This document shows positions 4,024-29,010 of a DNA stretch of 32,000 nucleotides, in pieces. Source of the stretch: Stygiobacter electus. GTDB taxonomy: Bacteria; Bacteroidota; Ignavibacteria; Ignavibacteriales; Melioribacteraceae. Each line of letters opens with the position of its first letter. Within the stretch, counting starts at the first letter, position 1. Location: positions 53,366 to 85,365 of the forward strand of contig NZ_JARGDL010000005.1 of assembly GCF_029210465.1 (NCBI RefSeq), read 5' to 3'. Below the pieces are notes generated by a model. That model was given only the letters and a program-made list of their open reading frames with translations. It made no database searches and was not told the DNA's origin. Made by a program: the position numbers and the translations under genes.

Positions 4024-4082
4024 GGATAAAGATAAATTTCACGATTAATCTTAAGCTTACTTTATACTTGCTAAATTATATT

Positions 4083-4142
4083 TGTGTTAATCTGTGAAAT
4101 CTGTGGTAAAAAAACTAACCACAGATAACACAGATTTGCACA
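4083..4142. repeat. Imperfect 25-bp inverted repeat (tgtgttaatctgtgaaatctgtggt / accacagataacacagatttgcaca) with a 10-nt spacer
   Basis: The arms are complementary at 21 of 25 positions by manual alignment. Each arm is itself a tandem array of CACAGAT-type 9-10-mers. Confidence 0.8.
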
Positions 4143-4164
4143 GATCGATTTTATAATTTTTCGG

Positions 4165-5974: not shown

Positions 5975-6363
5975 GATTCTTGTCAGGCAATTGATTCGCA
6001 GAAAGCGAGTAGGAAAGTCCGAACACCACAGAGCAGGGTGCCGGGTAACGCCCGGGATTCCGACTATGTTGGAATACGGAAAGTGCCACAGAAAACATAC
6101 CGCTCCGATTTAAATCGGAGTAAGGGTGAAAAGGCGAGGTAAGAGCTCACCGCTTCGATAGTAATATCGTTGGCAGGGCAAACCCCACCTGGTGCAAGGT
6201 CAAGTAGAAAGCATCCATTTATTGGACAAAGTTGCTCGCTTTGATTTCCTTCGGGAATTTGCTTTCGGGTAGACCGCTTGATGCCGATGGTAACATCGGT
6301 ACTAGATAAATAATTGCCGCTCCGTTTTTACGGAGTACAGAATTCGGCTTATAGACAAGAATC
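5975..6363 (+). ncRNA. rnpB: RNase P RNA, bacterial type A
   Basis: Universal blocks are present: gaggaaagtccgaac, gtgccacagaaaacataccgc, gaggtaagagctcaccg and acagaattcggcttatag. The P1 stem is gattcttgtc (5975-5984) paired with gacaagaatc (6354-6363). Confidence 0.93.
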
Positions 6364-6394
6364 TTAAATTTTTCTTCTGCTTCCAAAGGGAAAT

Positions 6395-8131
6395 ATGCAA
6401 AATAAACGTTGGAAGCTTAAAGAAGCACCAGATGAAAAATTAATTCTGGCTTTAGCTGATAGTTTAAACATTTCTAATGTTTTAGCTTCTCTTCTTATCA
6501 AAAGAGGTGTTACTAATTTCTTTGAAGCTAAAAATTTTTTCCGCCCATCTCTCTCTTCTTTACATGATCCTTTTTTAATGGATGGAATGCACAATGCCAC
6601 TGATCGCGTCCTTCAAGCGTTAACTAATAATCAAAAAATTTGTGTCTATGGCGATTATGATGTTGACGGCACTTGTTCAGCCGCTTTGATGTATCTTTTC
6701 TTAAAGGATCTTGGTGCTGATGTTGAAACTTATATTCCAAATAGATTAACTGAAGGTTACGGGATTTCTATTCAAAGCATCGATCTTCTTAAAGAAAAAA
6801 ATATTGAATTAATAATTTCTGTTGATTGCGGAATTACTGCTGTTGAAGAAATTGATCATGCTAATAATTTAGGAATTGATACAATTGTTTGCGATCACCA
6901 TAAACCAAAAGATATTTTACCAAATGCTTATGCAATTTTAGATCCAATTAAACCAGGTTGTAATTATCCTTTCAAACATTTATCCGGTGCGGGCGTTGCA
7001 TTTAAACTTGCTTCGGCTGTTGCTTCAAGAATTGGAAAAGATAATTTACCATTGAAATATTTAGATCTTGTTGCATTAGCTGGTGCAGCAGATATAGTTC
7101 CTTTAACAGATGAAAATAGAATTCTTGTTAGAGAAGGATTGCAATTAATTAACACAAATCCACGACCAGGAATATCAGCGCTAATTCGTTCTGCCCGAAT
7201 GGAGCCGGGAAATTTATCTGCTGGTCAAGTTGTTTTTACAATTGCACCAAGAGTAAATGCCGTTGGCAGATTAGGCGATGCAAATCGTGCAGTTGAATTA
7301 TTTACAACAGATGATCCTCAAAAAGCAATAGAACTTGCTCAAATTCTTGAAGAAGAAAATTTTGAAAGAAGAAAAATTGATGAAATGACTTTTTCGCATG
7401 CAACAAGTTTGCTTGAAGAAACTATTGATTTAGATAATGACCTTGCTATTATTCTTCATTACGAAGATTGGCATCCAGGGGTGATTGGAATTGTTGCTTC
7501 TCGAATGGTTGAAAAATATCATCGCCCAACAATTATGTTAACTACAATTGATGGTGTTGCAAAAGGTTCTGCTCGTAGTATTCCCGGTTTTAATATTTAC
7601 GAAGCATTGCAAAATTGTGAAGAGTTTTTAGTTCAATTTGGTGGACACGAAGCCGCTGCCGGTTTAGCAATTGAAGTTGATAAGCTAAGTGACTTTAAGA
7701 AAAAATTTAATGAAGTATTGAAAACCAGCTTAAAAGAAGAACACATTTTACAAGAAATTTCTATTGATGCTAAAATTAATTTATCAGAAATTTCACCTAA
7801 GTTTATTAGAATTTTAGATCAATTTGCCCCATTCGGACCTGGAAATATGCGTCCAACTTTTTTAAGTGAAAACGTTTCATTAGTTCAAGCACCTCGTTTG
7901 GTTGGTTCAAATCATCTTGTTACTAGTTTTAAACAAAATGGTCATGAAAAAATTTTAGATGCAATTGGTTTTAATCTTGGTTATTTTGTATCTAAAATTA
8001 ATAAAGATGAAAATCTCGTTGATATTGTTTATACAATTGAAACAATTACAAAAGATGGAAAAGTATTTCCGCAAATTAGAATTAGAGACTTACGCATAAA
8101 AGACAAAAATGGAAATTATATAGAGGTTTAA
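6395..8131 (+). CDS. recJ: Single-stranded-DNA-specific exonuclease RecJ
   Basis: 578 aa with DHH-family motifs (VYGDYDVDGTCS, SVDCGI, VCDHH) and a DHHA1-type GGHEAAAG motif. Confidence 0.93.
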   Translation: MQNKRWKLKEAPDEKLILALADSLNISNVLASLLIKRGVTNFFEAKNFFRPSLSSLHDPFLMDGMHNATDRVLQALTNNQKICVYGDYDVDGTCSAALMYLFLKDLGADVETYIPNRLTEGYGISIQSIDLLKEKNIELIISVDCGITAVEEIDHANNLGIDTIVCDHHKPKDILPNAYAILDPIKPGCNYPFKHLSGAGVAFKLASAVASRIGKDNLPLKYLDLVALAGAADIVPLTDENRILVREGLQLINTNPRPGISALIRSARMEPGNLSAGQVVFTIAPRVNAVGRLGDANRAVELFTTDDPQKAIELAQILEEENFERRKIDEMTFSHATSLLEETIDLDNDLAIILHYEDWHPGVIGIVASRMVEKYHRPTIMLTTIDGVAKGSARSIPGFNIYEALQNCEEFLVQFGGHEAAAGLAIEVDKLSDFKKKFNEVLKTSLKEEHILQEISIDAKINLSEISPKFIRILDQFAPFGPGNMRPTFLSENVSLVQAPRLVGSNHLVTSFKQNGHEKILDAIGFNLGYFVSKINKDENLVDIVYTIETITKDGKVFPQIRIRDLRIKDKNGNYIEV

Positions 8132-10265: not shown

Positions 10266-10712
10266 ATGGCTACTAAATTACATTCAAGTAAAATAATAGA
10301 TATTTATTCCGCACTAACAGATACAGAACTTGAATTACCAGTTGTTAATTCCGGCATTAGTGCTGGTTTTCCTTCACCGGCATTGGATTTTGTTGATATC
10401 AGTATTGATTTAAATAAACATTTAATTAAACATCCATCTGCTACTTTTTACGGACGTGTAAAAGGACACTCATTAAAAAATGCCGGTATTGATGATGGCG
10501 ATCTTTTAATTATTGACAGAAGTTTAGAACCGCAAAATGGAAAAATTGCTGTTTGTTATATTGATGGCGAATTCACAGCTAAAAGAATTAAAATAAAAAA
10601 AGATGAAATTTGGCTGATGCCGGAAAATGAAAATTACGCCCCAATTAAAGTCGGAAAGGATAACGACTTTTTAGTTTGGGGAATTGTAACTCATGTAATT
10701 AAATCTTTTTAA
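10266..10712 (+). CDS. umuD: S24-peptidase UmuD-like translesion polymerase accessory subunit
   Basis: 148 aa with the SAGFPSPA motif, a GHSL serine-nucleophile region and a downstream AKRI lysine. It lies 1 nt upstream of the umuC-like gene. Confidence 0.85.
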
Positions 10713-10713
10713 A

Positions 10714-11973
10714 ATGTTTTCATTAATTGATTGCAATAATTTTTATGCTTCGTGCGAAAGAGTTTTTCGCCCCGATTTAAATGGAAAGCCTGTTGTTGTT
10801 TTGTCCAACAACGATGGCTGTGTAATTGCAAGAAGTAACGAAGCAAAAGCTCTTGGCATTCCAATGGGTGCACCAGCTTTTCAATATGAAGATGTTTTTG
10901 TAAAACATAATGTTCATGTTTTTTCTGCAAACTTTGCTCTTTATGGTGATATGAGTCATCGCGTGATGACTATTTTATCCGAATATTCTCCTGATATCGA
11001 AATTTACAGCATTGACGAAGCCTTCTTAAATCTTGATGGATTAGAACATCTCAACTTACTTGATTATGGAAATAAAATCAGAAAACATGTTTTTAAATGG
11101 ACTGGAATTCCTATCAGTATTGGAATTGCACCAACAAAAGCTTTAGCCAAAGCTGCAAATAGAATTGCAAAAAAATTCTCCGATAAAACCAATGGCGTTT
11201 ATGTACTTGATAATCAAGAAAAAATTACTAAAACACTTAAATGGCTTTCTGTTGAAGATGTTTGGGGAATTGGAAGAAGACATAGCAAAAGATTAAAGGC
11301 AATTGGTGTAAAAACAGCTTACGATTTTATTCAACTTGATGATAATTATGTCAAAAGAAAAATGACAATTGTTGGTCTTCGCTTAAAAAGAGATTTGCAA
11401 GGAATTCCAACAATTCAAATGGAAGATGTTCAACCCAAAAAGAATATTGCAACGACAAGAACATTTGAAACTAATTATAGTGAGTTTGAACAGATTAATG
11501 AACGTGTAATCACTTTTGCAGTTTCGTGTGGTGAAAAGTTAAGAAAACAAAATTCAGCTTGTAATTCATTAATGGTTTTTATTCATACAAATCAACATCG
11601 GGAAGATTTACCGCAATACAGCAGAAACATTGTAGTTAAACTTCCATTTCCAACTAATTCCGGAATTGAACTTGCAAAATTTGCTTCGCAAGCATTAAAA
11701 CAAATTTTTAAGCCCGGTTACTTTTACAAAAAAGCCGGAGTTATAGTAATGGATTTTACACCGGCAGATATTCCTCAATATGATTTGTTTGAAAACAGCG
11801 ATGAACGTCATAAACCATTAATGCAAGCAGTTGATAAAATTAACTCGAGATATGGTCAGCATAAAATTCGTCTTGCGTCGCAAGATCAAAAACGTGTTTG
11901 GAAAATGAAACAGGAAAAACTATCACCACGCTACACAACAAAATTATCTGATATTATAACAATCAATTTATAA
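10714..11973 (+). CDS. umuC: Y-family DNA polymerase, UmuC-like
   Basis: 419 aa. The N-terminus [52 protein letters not shown] is the canonical UmuC block. Confidence 0.9.
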
Positions 11974-12060: not shown

Positions 12061-12098
12061 ATTAGTGAAAATTAGTGTAATTCGTGTCTGAAAAATTT
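12061..12098. repeat. Dispersed repeat R1, second copy (inverted relative to 3985-4023)
   Basis: attagtgaaaattagtgtaattcgtgtctgaaaaattt is the reverse complement of the 3985-4023 sequence, apart from two indels. Confidence 0.8.
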
Positions 12099-13222
12099 TT
12101 CTCAAATATCTTCACTAAAAAGATGTTATATTTAAACAGCATCAAAAAATATGAGACTGTAAAAATATAATCTTCTTTTCCTTTCCACAGGTGCATTATT
12201 CTTCTGAGTAGTTTCTTTGCTATACGAATAATAGCTTCCTGCTTTTTCATTCTCTTTATTAATTGTCCATACTTCATCGTTAATGCAGGGTCTTTTCTCG
12301 ATGCTATCCAAGCTGATTCTATCAATATATTTCTTAAATATGTGTTCTGTCTTTGTGTTATTCCCAGAACAACTTCTTTCCCTCCTGTTGAATATGTCGA
12401 TGGAGCTAAACCTACATAACTGCTTAGGTGATCATATCCCAAAAATCTTCTTATATCCATTATTTCTGTATATAACGTTACTGCTGTTATAAATCCTATA
12501 CCAGGTACTGTCATTAGTCGTGTTATTATCTTTTGTTTGTCTTCATCCTGATTTATCATTTTTCTTAACATTCTAACAACTTCTGTCATCTGTTCCCTTA
12601 AGGTTTTAAGTTGTCTTAAGTGTTGTTGAAGTGTTTGTTTGACTTCTTCCTGCTGAAAGTTCAAGCTTTCTATGTATTTGATAAACTTTCCGCTCCAGTA
12701 TTTTACTTCTATGTTTTCCGGTAGTTGAACCCCTAAAAAATTCAATAATGATTTTATCCTGTTCTTTACTCTTGTCTGATCTTTTACCAGTTGTATCCTT
12801 AGTCTACTCAATGTCCTTGCTGCTTGCTGTTCCTCTGCTGGAATATATATTCCCTTGAGATTATTACTCGATAGCTCTCTGGCTAATTTTCTTGAGTCTA
12901 TTCTATCGGTTTTACTTGTCTTTTCCTTATTACTTGTTGGTACATCTGCAGGATTAACTACTATATTTTCTATTCCCATTGATTTCAATTGCCTGTCTAT
13001 CCAGTATCCACAATATCCAGCCTCATAGCAACTTTGATACTTCGCTTTCGGATAATTCTTCATTAAATATTTACTTAACTCCTTTGTACTTGGGTTCATA
13101 CTGAATGTTTTGATTTGTTGTCCTCCTGTATTTATTGTTACTGACCACTGCTTCTTATGTACGTCTATTCCAACAAATACTGTTTGGTTTGTAAAATCAA
13201 GTTTGTTATTTTCCTTCTGCAT
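12062..13222 (-). CDS. IS110-family transposase (DEDD N-terminal domain plus Transposase_20-type C-terminal domain)
   Basis: It carries VFVGIDVHKKQW, PGIGFITAVTLYTEIMDIRRF and SYVGLAPSTYSTGGK. Family-like sequence stops around ...LLRRIMHLWKGKEDY. The last ~30 codons read through the 61-bp repeat and repeat R1 before the stop. Confidence 0.88.
   Translation of the reverse strand: MQKENNKLDFTNQTVFVGIDVHKKQWSVTINTGGQQIKTFSMNPSTKELSKYLMKNYPKAKYQSCYEAGYCGYWIDRQLKSMGIENIVVNPADVPTSNKEKTSKTDRIDSRKLARELSSNNLKGIYIPAEEQQAARTLSRLRIQLVKDQTRVKNRIKSLLNFLGVQLPENIEVKYWSGKFIKYIESLNFQQEEVKQTLQQHLRQLKTLREQMTEVVRMLRKMINQDEDKQKIITRLMTVPGIGFITAVTLYTEIMDIRRFLGYDHLSSYVGLAPSTYSTGGKEVVLGITQRQNTYLRNILIESAWIASRKDPALTMKYGQLIKRMKKQEAIIRIAKKLLRRIMHLWKGKEDYIFTVSYFLMLFKYNIFLVKIFEKNFSDTNYTNFH
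12092..12152 (+). repeat. 61-bp direct repeat, copy B (abutting or inside the 3' end of the IS110 ORF)
   Basis: Identical to 10163-10223. On the minus strand it is translated as the tail ...YFLMLFKYNIFLVKIFEKNF of the transposase ORF. Confidence 0.95.
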
Positions 13223-19731: not shown

Positions 19732-21843
19732 ATGAAAAAGTTTTGTTTGCTGTTTTTGTTGCTTTCAATTAACCTTTTTGCTCAAACAAATTTAACTTCA
19801 TCTAATTTACCGATTATAATAATTGATACAAATGGACAAGCCATTCCTGATGAACCCAAAATTACAGCTTCAATGAAAATAATTGATAAAGGAAATGGTG
19901 AAAGAAATTATGTAACAGATCCTGCTAATGTTTATGATGGAAAAATCGGAATTGAAATTCGTGGTCATTCTACTCAAATGTTCCCTAAAAAACAATATGG
20001 AATTGAATTACGTGATAATTCAGGCAATGATATTAATGCGGCAATTTTAGGTTTTCCTGCAGAAAGTGATTTTGTTTTTAATGCAACATACACAGATAAA
20101 TCTCTTTTAAGAAATGTTATTGCATATAAACTTGGAAATGATTTAGGCAGATACGCAACTCGCACAAAATTTTTTGAGTTAATTATTAACAATGATTACA
20201 AAGGAATTTATATTCTTCAAGAAAAAATTAAAAGAGATAAAAACAGAGTTAACATAAAAAAATGTGAAGCGGCAGATACAACAGGTGATGCTGTAACTGG
20301 TGGATATTTAATTAAGATTGATAGAATTGATCCAGGTGATAAATATTTTAATTCTGAATATCCATCAGTTTTTCCAAACACGCCTTCAAAACCATCGCCG
20401 ATTAGTTACATTATTGAATATCCAAAAGCAGAAAATATTCAACCAGCACAATATAATTACATTAAAAATTTCATTAATGATTTTGAAACAACTTTAACAA
20501 AGTCAACTTTCAACGATCCATTTGATGGATATTATAATTTCATTGATATAGATGCATGGGTGGATTATTTTCTTGTGAGTGAATTTACAAAAACAACGGA
20601 TGCTTATCGTTTAAGTGCTTACCTTTATAAAGATAGAAACAGTGTAAATGGAAAATTAATTTTTGGTCCTCTTTGGGATTATGATTTGTCTTTTGGACTT
20701 GCAGATTATGGTGACAGCTGGAAAGAAAATGGCTGGGTCGCACAAAATATTCCAAATGAAGGTATTTGGAATCCACCATTTTGGATAAGAAAAATTTTTA
20801 ATGATCCTGTTTTTTTTAATAAACTTGCTCATCGCTGGCATAAATTAAAACAACAATCTATAAATCCATTTGATCCTGAAAATTTAGTAAAGTTTATTGA
20901 TGCAAATAATCTTTTACTTGCAGAAGCAATAAACAGAAATTTTTCGCGCTGGCCTGAATTGTTTGATCCGAATATTTATATCTGGCCAAACAAAAATAGA
21001 TTTACAAATTACAAAGATGAACTTCTGTATCTAAAAAGTTGGATTGTAAAAAGATTCAATTGGATGAATGCAAATCTTCCGGAAGATTATTCATACATAG
21101 AATGGAAACAACCAGGCAAACGTTGGTTGATTTATCAAATAGGAAATACTACAAAACTTCCACTTTCAATTTTTTATGGTGAAATTAAAAATGTAACTTC
21201 ACTTCAGTTTATTAGCAAAGATCCCAATGTAAATTTTTCTGTTCTTGGTGATTCATTAATAATTTCAGCTTCAAAACTTGGTGAATTTTCTTTTAAGGGT
21301 GTTGTAAAAAAGAATAATGTTGTTGTTTCAATTTCACCAGAGTATAAAATAAATCTTGCAACAAACATTGAAGAAGAAAATAATTTACCTACGCAGTTTG
21401 AATTATATCAAAACTATCCAAATCCATTTTCCGCTAGTAGTGGGAAATCAAGCACGACTATAAAATACACAATACCGTCTGTCATCCTTCGACAGGCTCA
21501 GGATGACAATAGACAGTCCCGACAAAATCGGGATCAGGACGACAATGTCATGGTGAGCCTGCCTGACCGGCAGACAGGCTTGTCGAACCATGACGTCACC
21601 AATCGAAATGTTCAGGATGACAATGTCACTTCGAGTTTATCGAGAAGTGTGCTGCATGTAACACTCAAAGTCTATGATATATTGGGTCGAGAAGTAGCAA
21701 CACTTGTAAACGAATATCAAAAACCGGGAATATATAGTACTGAGTTCAGAGCTCAGAGTTCTGAGTTATCAAGCGGAATTTATTTTTATAAACTTCAGGC
21801 AGGAGAATTCAGTCAGACGAAGAAATTATTGCTGATGAAATAA
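19732..21843 (+). CDS. CotH-family protein with a type-A T9SS C-terminal sorting domain
   Basis: CotH blocks are present: LPIIIIDTNG, KKQYGIELRD and LRNVIAYKLGNDLGRYATRTKFFELIINNDYKGIYILQEKIKRDKNR. The tail reads YQNYPNPF...KYTIPSV[60-codon insert]VTLKVYDILGREVATLVN...GIYFYKLQAGEFSQTKKLLLMK. Confidence 0.88.
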   Translation: MKKFCLLFLLLSINLFAQTNLTSSNLPIIIIDTNGQAIPDEPKITASMKIIDKGNGERNYVTDPANVYDGKIGIEIRGHSTQMFPKKQYGIELRDNSGNDINAAILGFPAESDFVFNATYTDKSLLRNVIAYKLGNDLGRYATRTKFFELIINNDYKGIYILQEKIKRDKNRVNIKKCEAADTTGDAVTGGYLIKIDRIDPGDKYFNSEYPSVFPNTPSKPSPISYIIEYPKAENIQPAQYNYIKNFINDFETTLTKSTFNDPFDGYYNFIDIDAWVDYFLVSEFTKTTDAYRLSAYLYKDRNSVNGKLIFGPLWDYDLSFGLADYGDSWKENGWVAQNIPNEGIWNPPFWIRKIFNDPVFFNKLAHRWHKLKQQSINPFDPENLVKFIDANNLLLAEAINRNFSRWPELFDPNIYIWPNKNRFTNYKDELLYLKSWIVKRFNWMNANLPEDYSYIEWKQPGKRWLIYQIGNTTKLPLSIFYGEIKNVTSLQFISKDPNVNFSVLGDSLIISASKLGEFSFKGVVKKNNVVVSISPEYKINLATNIEEENNLPTQFELYQNYPNPFSASSGKSSTTIKYTIPSVILRQAQDDNRQSRQNRDQDDNVMVSLPDRQTGLSNHDVTNRNVQDDNVTSSLSRSVLHVTLKVYDILGREVATLVNEYQKPGIYSTEFRAQSSELSSGIYFYKLQAGEFSQTKKLLLMK
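21478..21657. repeat. Composite of GC-rich hairpin elements inserted in frame in the CotH T9SS domain
   Basis: Hairpins: gtcatcc/ggatgac (21481-21507); tcccga/tcggga (21517-21533); gtcatgg...ccatgac (21547-21594), which encloses agcctgcctg/cagacaggct; and cacttcgag/cgagaagtg (21628-21649). There are three copies of caggaYgacaatRt. No stop occurs in the gene frame. Confidence 0.85.
21698..21843 (+). repeat. 146-bp direct repeat, copy 1 (3' end of the CotH gene)
   Basis: It matches 22682-22827 at 145 of 146 positions. The single difference (ttt versus ttc) is synonymous. Confidence 0.95.
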
Positions 21844-22324: not shown

Positions 22325-22623
22325 ATAGAAAATAAAAATTTTAAGATAATTTCTTTAACAATGCATCAGTATTTTAAAATTATGATAGTGATTATATAAA
22401 CGAAATGTTCTAACTGTAAAAATAAATTAATGACTCTAAGAAATTATGAACAGTGTCATGGCAATCCCAATGATTTCAGAGAAGTATTTTTGATTTTAAA
22501 ATATCTAATGACTTTCAGGACATCCAATATTATCCTAATTATCCCAAGCCGGTTTCCGCCAGAAGTGGATCCGCCTTTGGCGAAAATCTAACAACGACGA
22601 TAAAATATTCAATACCTATGGGT

Positions 22624-22651
22624 GTAGAGATGTCATATATGACGTCTCTAC
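22624..22651. repeat. 28-bp GTAG...CTAC palindrome (one mismatch) inside the orphan T9SS domain
   Basis: gtagagatgtcatatatgacgtctctac encodes VEMSYMTSL between SIP and QIYD. Confidence 0.9.
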
Positions 22652-22681
22652 AGATTTATGATGTACTTGGAAAAGAAGTTA

Positions 22682-22827
22682 CAACACTTGTAAACGAATA
22701 TCAAAAACCGGGAATATATAGTACTGAGTTCAGAGCTCAGAGTTCTGAGTTATCAAGCGGAATTTATTTCTATAAACTTCAGGCAGGAGAATTCAGTCAG
22801 ACGAAGAAATTATTGCTGATGAAATAA
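22682..22827 (+). repeat. 146-bp direct repeat, copy 2 (3' end of the orphan T9SS domain)
   Basis: See 21698-21843. Confidence 0.95.
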
Positions 22828-26618: not shown

Positions 26619-28958
26619 ATGAAATTCAAACTTTTTACGCTGTTATTTTTATTAATTTCAATTAAACTAATTTCTCAAACAGCGACTCTTCAAACTTCAT
26701 TTAACTTTGTTGATATAAATGGAATTAAAGTACCCATGCAAAATGGAATGCCTTTACCATCATTTGAAAAACAAAATAGCAGAACAATTATTGATTTATC
26801 AGGTGAATGGAAAAAATTTAGATTTGTCTCTGATGATAATCTTACGCTTTCAAACCGAGATGCTAATGTAATTACGGCAATTGAAAATGAATCTGTTGGA
26901 AAGCATCTCCCAAATTATGATGATTCAAATTGGCAAAAGAAAAATTTACCAGCAGTTGAAAACGAAATGAATGCACCAAATGATAACTTTCCAGAATTTT
27001 ATAACGATGGTGTTTGGTATCGTAAAACCTTTAATGTTGATGCTGGTTACTCAAACAAATTTGTTAAACTAATGTTCTATGCTGTTAACTATGTTTGTGA
27101 TGTTTGGATAAATGGAAAATATGTTGGCTATCATGAAGGTGGTTATACACCATTCGCATTTGATGTTTCACAATTTTTAAATTATGGCTCAACAAATACA
27201 ATTGCAATTCGTGTTGATAATATTGCCTGGGGATTAAGGAAAGATATAATTCCTTTTAATAATGTAGATTGGTTCAACTATGCTGGTATTATTCACGATA
27301 TTTATCTTGAAGTTTCCGATAAAACATCTTTAACGAGAGCTAATATCATTCCTAAAGATATTAATGGAAATATCTCTACAACTTTAATTATTAATAATGC
27401 CGATATTGCTAAAAATGTATTTGTGAAAATCAATATTTACGAGGCTTCAATCAATAACAACAATATTAAATCTGAATACGCAAAAGATTTAATTGGAAAA
27501 GAAATTTTGTTCAATGGGACTTCAGAAAAATCAATTCAATTAAATGAAAAAAGTGTTTATACAATTCAGTTTAATAATCAAATCCCAAATCCAAAATTGT
27601 GGACGATGAAAAATCCAAATCTTTATGTAATGAAAGTAACAATTCAAAAAAGTCAAAGTGACCCGACAATAATTGATGAATACTATACACAATTTGGAAT
27701 TAGAACCGTTACAACATCAAAAGGAAAATTTTTACTTAATAATAAAATTATGTTTTTACCTGGAGTTGCTCGGCATGAAGATCATCCAACTTTTGGAAGA
27801 AGTGTTCCGAAAGATGTTATTTATTCAGATTTGCAAGAAGTAAAAAATTTGAATGCACTTTATATAAGAACAGCTCACTATCCAAATCATCTTTATACTT
27901 ATTTAATTGCAGATAGATTAGGATTTGGAATAATGGAAGAAATTCCTGCCTGGCAATGGGATAGTAAAGAAGTTTATGATATTCAAAATGCACGCAAACT
28001 TTACATTCAAATGTTTCGCGAAATGGTATTTAAAGATTTTAATCGTCCATCAATTTTTATGTGGAGTACATCAAACGAAAGTCATTGGAATGGAGTAGAA
28101 CGATTAACTTTTAACAATAACATTAAATCAGATTACCGAACAAACTATGATGATGGAAGATTGCTAACACAATCAGCCGCAGCAGATAATCCAGGTTCAT
28201 CTGACCAATCACAAAATTTATTAGATGTTGCTGGTTGGACAATTTACTTTGGTATATTTTATGGCAAAACTGGTCAATATACTGGTCCAACATATTCATT
28301 TGTTAATTCAGCTCAAACAAATTTTCCTGATAAACCAATTATCGATACAGAATTTGGTTATTGGTCATCTGAAAGTGGATCAACGACAAGTGAACAAGTA
28401 AAAGTCTTTAATGAAACATTTAACGCTTTTAAATTCTTTTTTCCATACGATGCTTTTGGAAATGAAAACGAAAATGGACACTTAATGGGAACAACATGGT
28501 GGTGCATTTATGATTGGTTCCAAAACAAACAAAAAAAGAATGGATGGCAAACAATGGGTTTATTTAGAATGGATAGAATAACAGAAAAACCTGTTGCCGG
28601 AACATTAAGGACTGCTTATTTACCGTATGCAAGTAAAGAAGGAATTCCAGTCAGTGTTGAAAAAAATGTTGATGCTATACCATCAGAATTTGTTTTATAT
28701 CAGAACTACCCAAATCCATTCAATCCAACAACAATAATAAAATATTCGATACCAACGGGTGTAGAGACGTCATATATGACGTCTCTACGGATATATGATA
28801 TCCTTGGAAAAGAAGTTGCAACTCTTGTAAATGAACGCCAACCAGCGGGAAATTATGAAGTAAAATTTGATGGAAGCAATTTATCAAGTGGAGTTTACTT
28901 CTATAAATTGCAAAGCGGTAGTTTTGTTCAAACAAAGAAATTCATTTTGATGAAATAG
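26619..28958 (+). CDS. Glycoside hydrolase family 2 enzyme with a type-A T9SS C-terminal sorting domain
   Basis: It has a GH2 sugar-binding block (WYRKTFNV..., VNGKYVGYHEGGYTPFAFDVS, IAIRVDN) and TIM-barrel blocks (RTAHYPNH, WSTSNESH). The tail reads YQNYPNPFNPTTIIKYSIPTGVETSYMTSLRIYDILGKEVATLVN...GVYFYKLQSGSFVQTKKFILMK. Confidence 0.85.
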   Translation: MKFKLFTLLFLLISIKLISQTATLQTSFNFVDINGIKVPMQNGMPLPSFEKQNSRTIIDLSGEWKKFRFVSDDNLTLSNRDANVITAIENESVGKHLPNYDDSNWQKKNLPAVENEMNAPNDNFPEFYNDGVWYRKTFNVDAGYSNKFVKLMFYAVNYVCDVWINGKYVGYHEGGYTPFAFDVSQFLNYGSTNTIAIRVDNIAWGLRKDIIPFNNVDWFNYAGIIHDIYLEVSDKTSLTRANIIPKDINGNISTTLIINNADIAKNVFVKINIYEASINNNNIKSEYAKDLIGKEILFNGTSEKSIQLNEKSVYTIQFNNQIPNPKLWTMKNPNLYVMKVTIQKSQSDPTIIDEYYTQFGIRTVTTSKGKFLLNNKIMFLPGVARHEDHPTFGRSVPKDVIYSDLQEVKNLNALYIRTAHYPNHLYTYLIADRLGFGIMEEIPAWQWDSKEVYDIQNARKLYIQMFREMVFKDFNRPSIFMWSTSNESHWNGVERLTFNNNIKSDYRTNYDDGRLLTQSAAADNPGSSDQSQNLLDVAGWTIYFGIFYGKTGQYTGPTYSFVNSAQTNFPDKPIIDTEFGYWSSESGSTTSEQVKVFNETFNAFKFFFPYDAFGNENENGHLMGTTWWCIYDWFQNKQKKNGWQTMGLFRMDRITEKPVAGTLRTAYLPYASKEGIPVSVEKNVDAIPSEFVLYQNYPNPFNPTTIIKYSIPTGVETSYMTSLRIYDILGKEVATLVNERQPAGNYEVKFDGSNLSSGVYFYKLQSGSFVQTKKFILMK
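28761..28788. repeat. Perfect 28-bp GTAG...CTAC palindrome inside the GH2 T9SS domain
   Basis: gtagagacgtcatatatgacgtctctac equals its own reverse complement. It encodes VETSYMTSL between SIPTG and RIYD. The antisense tracked ORF 28720..28935 carries the same peptide. Confidence 0.95.
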
Positions 28959-28974
28959 TATCCTATGACCAGAG

Positions 28975-29010
28975 GAAGGCAGAATCAATTTGGTTCTGCC
29001 TTCTGTTTTT
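28975..29010 (+). terminator. Intrinsic terminator of the GH2 gene
   Basis: gaaggcagaa (28975-28984) and ttctgccttc (28994-29003) form a 10-bp stem with a 9-nt loop, followed by tgttttt. Confidence 0.85.

Follow-up and report, generated by a model that had tools for sequence, protein, structure and literature searches.

How does one hairpin-forming piece of DNA come to encode the same loop of the same protein domain in two different genes? The question is raised by a 32,000-nucleotide stretch of Stygiobacter electus (contig NZ_JARGDL010000005.1, positions 53,366 to 85,365; hereafter the window), where a perfect 28-bp palindrome, GTAGAGACGTCATATATGACGTCTCTAC, lies in a GH2 glycoside hydrolase gene, within the part that encodes its type IX secretion system (T9SS) C-terminal domain, and a one-mismatch copy occupies the same loop of an orphan tail, a T9SS domain without a passenger domain. 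T9SS C-terminal domains are cleavable export signals. The first-pass annotation of the window had proposed a repetitive extragenic palindromic (REP) element associated with REP-associated tyrosine transposases (RAYTs) and having a preferred target inside tail-coding DNA. Our analysis suggests that the palindrome is probably an intragenic REP of a GTAG-type, RAYT-linked family, which landed in a tolerant loop of the T9SS tail and spreads with the domain; a preference for tail DNA was not supported.

The palindrome and its repeat family

The GH2 gene (26619–28958, plus strand) encodes a 779-aa protein whose T9SS type A C-terminal sorting domain spans approximately 28707–28955. The perfect palindrome, running from GTAG to CTAC at 28761–28788 and unstranded, is read as a REP unit in frame at loop 1 and strand beta-2 of this domain, and its codons give V E T S Y M T S L, followed by the initial base of the R codon, in the context IKYSIP-TG-VETSYMTSL-RIYD. 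The orphan tail lies on the plus strand in the stop-to-stop frame 22474–22827 (ATG open reading frame (ORF) 22618–22827), and its unstranded copy at 22624–22651 carries a C8 to T change (GAGACG to GAGATG) and encodes V E M S Y M T S L, in the context IKYSIP-MG-VEMSYMTSL-QIYD. Both copies are intragenic and in frame within Pfam Por_Secre_tail domains (PF18962); the GH2 and orphan tails, together with the tail of a CotH-domain gene, scored 42.9, 34.2 and 29.4 bits, respectively, all C-terminal and all above the cutoff of 27. No further match to GTAGAGACGTCATATATGACGTCTCTAC with up to three mismatches was found in the window, and the chance expectation from 100 shuffles was 0. The positions, the single mismatch, the shared loop and the peptide VE(T/M)SYMTSL given by the first-pass annotation were confirmed from the sequence. 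So was an antisense ORF (28720–28935, minus strand) that also reads VETSYMTSL, a trivial result given that the palindrome is its own reverse complement; this ORF comes without evidence of being a gene.

Single-stranded, the palindrome folds into a hairpin with a stem of about 12–13 bp and a loop of 4 nt (−11.6 kcal/mol, z = −5.8, as DNA; −20 kcal/mol, z = −3.9, as RNA), in which the mismatch of the orphan copy becomes a T-G or U-G wobble on the sense strand. Its length and stable stem-loop agree with those of REPs (20–40 bp), and its 5' foot, GTAG at 28761–28764 and symmetric on the opposite strand, agrees with the GT[AG]G foot. No Rfam family covers the element. An intrinsic terminator was considered for the GH2 copy and rejected, as it has no terminator features and was not called; the orphan copy received only a marginal call (tail GATTTATGAT).

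The palindrome belongs to a family of the form GTAGAGACG-N10-CGTCTCTAC, members of which span many contigs and phyla. Pattern scans of a viral contig collection, with GTAGAGACG-N(4-12)-CGTCTCTAC, and of a metagenome collection, with GTAGAGACG-N(8-12)-CGTCTCTAC, each returned at least 120 stretches. Among the matches listed, nearly all were exactly 28 nt, mostly intergenic in appearance, on many contigs with G+C contents of 0.29–0.69 and with up to 4 copies per contig, and this dispersed occurrence bears out the assignment to the GTAG class of REP-type elements. The 206 listed copies in distinct contexts comprised 95 inner variants, and inner stem positions 10–12 and 17–19 were Watson-Crick paired in 86–98% of them, with 3–4 pair types each; together with a T-A to C-G change between the window and a related tail (L264), this amounts to the stem covariation expected of REPs. 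As many as 112 of the 206 copies were palindromic even through the central 4 nt (28773–28776 in the window), which cannot pair in a hairpin, a symmetry above the needs of stem-loop stability that hints at a dimeric protein site or at fold-back copying at the origin of the element. The 28-mer appears to be the whole element, given that no conserved motif flanks it (at most 0.11 bits at any of 12 positions in 396 flanks); in the same flanks, we found no fixed target tetranucleotide of the IS200/IS605 type 5' of the element. REP dimers (REPINs) were not seen among the family copies here. Nine elements (L004, L005, L024, L026, L028, L049 and others) had an extra 9-nt arm, CGTCTCTAC or GTAGAGACG, just outside the unit, and three RAYT proteins (P0237, P0154 and P0156) had tandem VETLP or VETQH half-arm repeats. 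Behind these duplicated arms and half-arm repeats there may be slippage, or strand transfer that was aborted at the arms.

The family extends well beyond secretion tails. In a species-representative genome collection, the exact window variant was present in 23 stretches, and outside T9SS tails it was found in Chloroflexia, Thermobaculum, Gloeobacterales, Bacteroidales and Paludibacteraceae, the first four of which carry the identical 28-mer in non-coding contexts. None of 126 viral-contig copies matched in a T9SS motif screen, and the family is therefore not T9SS-specific; among the 135 metagenome copies listed, a single one falls in tail loop 1. Family copies were also in frame in unrelated proteins, namely in a Der GTPase linker, in GH2 proteins (twice), in a histidine kinase ATPase loop, in a nonribosomal peptide synthetase and, four times in alternating frames, in a type IIG-like enzyme, as well as at other positions of Bacteroidota-type T9SS tails (in-frame coding copies at L220 9047, L229 5260, L255 10666, L258 8351 and 9258, L225 3367, L234 14120, and four in L167).

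GTAG-type REPs and REPINs are reportedly mobilized by RAYTs, according to the lines of work of Nunvar, of Bertels and Rainey, and of Ton-Hoang. A metagenome-assembled genome (MAG) of the Ignavibacteriales (L139) contains a 169-aa RAYT-like HUH/Y1 ORF at 6892–7401 with the motifs MPNHVHGII, WQKRFYDRIIR (AWQKRFYDRIIR) and NYIEENP, which correspond to the HUH motif NH[IFV]H, the WQ and the catalytic Tyr motif given for subclass 2.4 by Quentin et al. (2018; PMC6006769). Copies of GTAGAGACG(C/T)CATATATG(G/A)(T/C)GTCTCTAC surround this ORF at 6837–6864, 7411–7438 and 7576–7603, and another lies inside it in frame (7168–7195), reading LP-VETSYMASLQ-NK; three window-variant copies were detected within 800 bp, and a fourth, degenerate one is visible in the sequence. 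The proposed association with a RAYT was thus recovered as a REPtron, a RAYT gene flanked by the same repeat as in the window, in a related genome and not in the window's own. RAYT genes at two metagenome loci (L145 and L192) had the same layout, each with internal and flanking copies of one variant that differed from that of the window. The L139 ORF has 351 homologues, in Ignavibacteria, Bacteroidota, Cyanobacteria, Chloroflexi and Planctomycetes, some of them named RayT by the Joint Genome Institute (JGI). Most of the 120 homologues listed (P0121–P0240) carry VET....SLQ, VET....VST or RD....VST right after the HUH motif, the hairpin stretch being read in either open frame. The cognate enzyme would be a RAYT (TnpA-REP, HUH/Y1) from the subclass whose genes contain a REP of their own.

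At an Ignavibacteria RAYT locus (L268), no T9SS tail was found within 10 kb. Downstream of the RAYT gene, between pgi and polA, this locus has a longer hairpin (10560–10625; GTAGAGACTTGCCG...CGGCAAGTCTCTAT) that shares the GTAGAGAC foot and possibly represents the "long / double-foot" REPs known from subclass 2.4.

Probable accommodation in the tail fold and spread with tail segments

Comparison of orthologous tails indicates that the palindrome was gained. Searching with the catalytic part of the GH2 protein only gave an unbiased sample of tails, 116 of which were parsed; 95 had the canonical empty loop, with 20 residues from NPF to YD, and 21 had an insert. As most of the orthologous GH2 tails lack any insert here, the palindrome is a derived insertion. 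The inserts in the 21 filled tails were assorted. VETSYMTSL itself occurred only in P0241, a 99%-identical protein from a Stygiobacter sp. MAG (Melioribacteraceae) of the same species, and an orthologue at 85% identity had QFEKNRSEIL (with DNA confirmation in L266), one at 77% had a composite, CotH-like insert, and those at 68% or less were mostly empty. Four others carried different GTAG-type peptides (VGTRRGESLQ, VETRGGESLQ, VETRRGESLQ and VETWHGVSL). In the best 120 tails by similarity to the GH2 tail, 72 of the 109 that could be parsed had a loop-1 insert, falling into the families VET/VGT....SL, VISSGARNL, VTLSGVEGS, VIASETKQSQ, NVKSEMSN, MVRQAHHD and others. In a count over 106 tails of the unbiased orthologue set, 19 had loop-1 inserts. 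Two further loops varied in length in this set, one of them holding VETCRGKSL. That loop 1 fills with many unrelated repeats favors tolerance over targeting, and given that only the one listed metagenome copy lies in the loop, T9SS tails look like an unusually tolerant landing place and not like the target of the family.

The window itself holds a second kind of filled loop. The CotH-domain gene (19732–21843, plus strand) has a T9SS tail with a composite insert of about 180 bp (21480–21660, plus strand; ILRQAQDDN...SLSRSVLH), and its position in the same loop as the palindrome, as the first-pass annotation had stated, was verified. The insert contains GTCA...TGAC hairpins at 21480–21508 and 21547–21594, the latter with a nested stem, which are bordered by CGTC/GACG and represent a repeat class different from that of the palindrome; they may belong to the second superfamily of Di Nocera et al. 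(2013), the CGTC-tagged REPs. In the GH2 orthologue P0243, the same loop contains a composite insert similar to that of the CotH tail. At a syntenic Melioribacteraceae locus (L266/L267), the block from DUF4920 to GH2 is shared; the side with the CotH, plastocyanin-like and orphan-tail genes is not.

How a 28-bp unit could be absorbed by a coding sequence is suggested by the net lengths of filled loops. Relative to empty tails, the window's tail has gained 4 codons and those of the SURF_24 lineage have gained 3, whereas "unfused" inserts (IP-VETRHASSLQ-NVQLKIYD) add 7; given these gains, the 28-bp addition was always paired with a loss of old loop or strand codons. We propose that a copy entered loop 1, between beta-1 (..IKYSIP) and beta-2 (V.L.VYD), in an Ignavibacteriales ancestor and in the V-E-T....S-L frame, and that the frame would then have been restored by losing part of the old loop and strand, for the net four additional codons of the window. 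An AlphaFold model (AF2) of the tail domain, with a predicted local distance difference test (pLDDT) score of 88.5, is a six-stranded beta-sandwich, whose top Foldseek match is a T9SS substrate C-terminal domain (8glk_D, E = 9.7e-4), with the mirolase C-terminal domain and PorZ also matched. In this model, residues 28–34 (PTGVETS) form the loop and residues 35–43 (YMTSLRIYD) form strand beta-2, so the 3' arm of the palindrome (..ATG ACG TCT CTA C) is predicted to code for the first half of this strand. The model agrees with the earlier proposal that the element supplies strand residues and has been accommodated. Tolerance of the insert would follow from the nature of the domain, an export signal that is cleaved off and whose permissive loops collect many kinds of short repeats.

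Multiplication of the palindrome in tails seems to be largely a matter of tail recombination. In two Ignavibacteriales genomes, all exact copies, 12 in SURF_24 and 3 in a Melioribacter MAG, lie in T9SS tails at loop 1, on unrelated passenger domains. These 15 tails form one lineage (..KIKFTLPN-VETSYMTSL-RIYNILGKEIITLINKELSAG...), with 87% identity internally vs 55% to nine other tails from the same loci in the 63 nt that follow the YN/YD codon, and the junction codons vary from copy to copy. The first-pass annotation had described the tails around the two window copies as otherwise diverged, which was not borne out: the orphan and GH2 tails share 21 of 24 nt upstream and 38 of 45 nt downstream of the palindrome, and the last 136 nt of the orphan tail match the CotH tail at 130 positions (CotH segment 21713–21843). 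From its sequence, the orphan tail is a mosaic, GH2-like at approximately 22600–22696 and CotH-like at 22697–22827, and thus a recombinant of the two kinds of tail. The related statement that the two copies do not reflect simple paralogy stands in part, as the passenger genes are unrelated, but the palindrome-carrying tail segments are paralogous and exchanged by recombination. The single lineage of the 15 copies and the mosaic structure of the orphan tail point to a palindrome that is mostly carried along by tail recombination; multiplication would proceed mainly by the copying of a tail segment onto other genes through homologous recombination or gene conversion.

Once in a tail, the hairpin appears to drift. 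Four loci with tail copies were retrieved independently of the exact palindrome: L264 (GTAGAGACGCCATATATGGCGTCTTTAC) has the T-A to C-G compensatory pair and one wobble, L123 has one wobble, L124 has another hairpin nested in the loop, and L265 has a degenerate hairpin with the peptide retained. Because of this drift, with its wobbles, single compensatory pair and degenerate copies, the hairpin in tails looks to us like a relic that is tolerated and not like a signal that is needed.

Evidence against this reading and rival explanations

Several observations weigh against an intragenic REP that spreads with its host domain. No RAYT gene was found in the 32-kb window, where the sole transposase is of the IS110 family, and a RAYT would be linked to the window's genome by relatedness only. 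The L139 ORF falls below the curated cutoffs of both transposase models, NCBIfam NF047646 REP_Tyr_transpos (E = 2.7e-16, 59.8 bits, cutoff 80) and Pfam PF01797 Y1_Tnp (E = 7e-4, 20.2 bits, cutoff 23); its in-frame REP insert may lower these scores. No exact palindrome was found outside tails in SURF_24, so a REP population of the usual intergenic sort is not established for the genomes with tail copies. GTAG-type inserts at tail loop 1 are always read in frame 1, whereas either open frame is found in RAYT genes and in other proteins, a uniformity that could result from a precise insertion point rather than from selection. A 28-bp insertion also requires a compensating indel, and the frame would have had to be restored many times, with different net gains. 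Finally, the 28-mer shows 0 differences in 420 positions across the 15 exact copies vs 66 in 840 in the flanks, and as the loci were retrieved by exact palindrome match, this invariance is unusable as evidence of selection.

The alternative that survives best, which we nevertheless consider unlikely, is that T9SS tail DNA is the preferred insertion site of the REP for an active RAYT, which would recognize a sequence or structure there, so that each tail copy is an independent, targeted event. It is kept alive by the frame-1 uniformity and by the frequent restoration of the frame. In approximately 150 kb of Ignavibacteriales sequence surrounding tail copies, moreover, the further GTAG hairpins found were without exception in tail loops (L143, L123 and L124), never between genes; this one loop holds several inner variants (TCATATATGA, GGGCATGCCC, AGGCATGCCT and TTGCATGCAA, the last as VETLHATSL), and matching variants lie in RAYT genes of low-GC contigs (such as VETGHAPSLQ in L214 and TTGCATGCAA in L268/P0124). 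Against targeting stand the motif-free flanks, the junction codons that differ among copies, the rarity of loop copies in the metagenome matches, the placement of the 15 exact copies in one tail lineage, the unrelated repeat classes and unrelated proteins that are hit as well, and the fact that the insert is never a clean 28- or 30-bp gain. Tolerance and paralogous spread therefore account for the enrichment in tails at least as well as targeting does. Canonical beta-2 begins with GTAA, resembling the GTAG of the REP, in 7 of 11 empty tails; as a possible microhomology for targeting, this resemblance was judged too weak and was not used.

A bolder version, to which we give little credence, holds that the tail loops of Ignavibacteriales are an actively used safe harbor for REPs, in which RAYTs or hairpin-induced breaks insert and exchange units and the hairpins drive the exchange of tail cassettes. 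If this were true, mobile hairpins would shape which proteins get secreted, and "orphan" tails would be spare intermediates.

That the hairpin is a functional cis-element, either in the mRNA, by slowing translation or protecting the transcript, or in the DNA, as a signal (a cruciform or RAYT site) for tail-cassette exchange, seems very unlikely to us. The RNA hairpin is strong, one compensatory pair is present in a related tail, the recombination joint of the orphan tail lies at most ~50 nt from the palindrome, and repeat hairpins bound that tail. Mismatches are mostly C to T and leave the sense strand able to form G-U pairs, but this bias is expected anyway at 35% GC. Furthermore, 82% of orthologous GH2 tails have no insert at all, the loop of other tails holds inserts of unrelated sequence, the degenerate copy in L265 persists with its peptide intact, and the terminator-like hairpin of the GH2 gene lies after the stop codon (28974–29004) and not at the palindrome. 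Chance, or selection for the peptide VETSYMTSL yielding similar DNA in two tails, would fit the near-identical peptides at one structural position but is effectively refuted by the identical 28-mer in non-coding DNA of four other groups, the absence of expected chance matches, the stem covariation and the window variant that flanks a RAYT-like gene.

Known systems and other features of the window

The preferred reading, a REP that entered a tolerant tail loop and travels with the domain, places a known kind of element in a new setting. GTAG-tagged REPs, including REPs inside genes, have been described (Di Nocera et al., 2013; PMC3733652), and they share with the element here the 20–40 bp hairpin, 5' GTAG, multiple and mostly intergenic copies, stem covariation and a repeat-flanked RAYT (L139); in-frame loop copies were already reported in that work. 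In contrast to those REPs, the element here is a fully symmetric 28 bp with GTAG...CTAC at both ends, often palindromic through its center (112 of the 206 copies listed), and the Ignavibacteriales copies that we found lie in T9SS tail loops and are not intergenic. GTAG REPs were not listed for Bacteroidetes or Chlorobi in the same study. For TnpA-REP subclass 2.4 (RAYT Group 4, Bertels Group 4), a REP inside the RAYT gene has been published (Quentin et al., 2018; PMC6006769; PMC5581495), and the likeness extends to NH[IFV]H, WQ and YIxNNP-like motifs, to a distribution over Cyanobacteria, Bacteroidetes and scattered phyla, and to an in-frame REP after the HUH motif, which is nearly always present in the L139 clade among the homologues listed. 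The case differs in that T9SS tails seem to go unmentioned in PMC6006769 and in that the L139 protein scores below both model cutoffs.

Rickettsia palindromic elements (Ogata et al., cited in PMC3733652) are, in the description given there, likewise palindromic repeats tolerated in frame at surface loops. They are ~100–150 bp long, belong to CGTC or other classes, occur in many unrelated proteins and have no known transposase according to the same secondary description, whereas here a short unit occupies a single loop in a single domain family, with which it spreads. The three window tails are themselves members of the T9SS type A C-terminal domain (PF18962 / TIGR04183), with Pfam scores above the cutoff, and the model is a beta-sandwich that matches a solved T9SS substrate domain; the modelled tail differs in that loop 1 is four residues over canonical and in that half of beta-2 is predicted to be coded by repeat DNA. 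REPs, their link to RAYTs, REPs inside RAYT genes and in-frame loop REPs are thus known already (PMC3733652; PMC6006769). Literature searches found no paper associating T9SS or Ignavibacteria with REPs or RAYTs, and searches with sequence strings of the element returned unrelated primer matches only. In Ignavibacteriales, the role of the T9SS C-terminal domain as a sink for repeats of several families appears undescribed, as do a REP arm that serves as strand codons and a spread through tail recombination.

The case shows a selfish hairpin repeat turning into ordinary coding sequence, with half a beta-strand of a secretion-signal domain being repeat-derived, and the Ignavibacteriales domain acting as a sink for several short-repeat families. 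It explains many unusual peptides of T9SS proteins from metagenomes, such as VETRHASSLQ, VIASETKQSQ and VTLSGVEGS. Annotators should be prepared for the possibility that a tail rich in inserts obtains a low domain-model score. The filled loops also provide a natural map of insertion tolerance that is useful for engineering T9SS tags. To the question of how REPs spread, they add a case in which spread appears to occur largely by host-domain recombination and not by transposition.

Other repeats occur in the window. The N-motif of the orphan tail is degenerate (QYYPNYPKP), and at its expected NPFNP site we read from the sequence a second, unrelated imperfect hairpin, CCGCCAGAAGTGGATCCGCCTTTGGCG (22556–22582, unstranded), which we would assign to a GGATCCGCC...GGCGG type. 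A hairpin of this type also occurs in a SURF_24 tail (L124, STEGGSASGGDG), in the loop before LSSGVYFY. The string FRAQSSELSSG, common to the CotH and orphan tails, likewise looks repeat-derived. An intergenic, long imperfect inverted repeat at 4072–4153, with 36-nt arms that are 78% complementary and CTGTGAAATCTGTGG-like units, is probably a further dispersed repeat family. The IS110-family DEDD transposase gene lies at 12062–13222 on the minus strand; REP-like sequences are among the known targets of this family. The RNase P RNA (bacterial class A; 5975–6367, plus strand; Rfam 293.8 bits) is followed by recJ, yebC and ruvC and by an umuD/umuC-like pair at 10266–11973.

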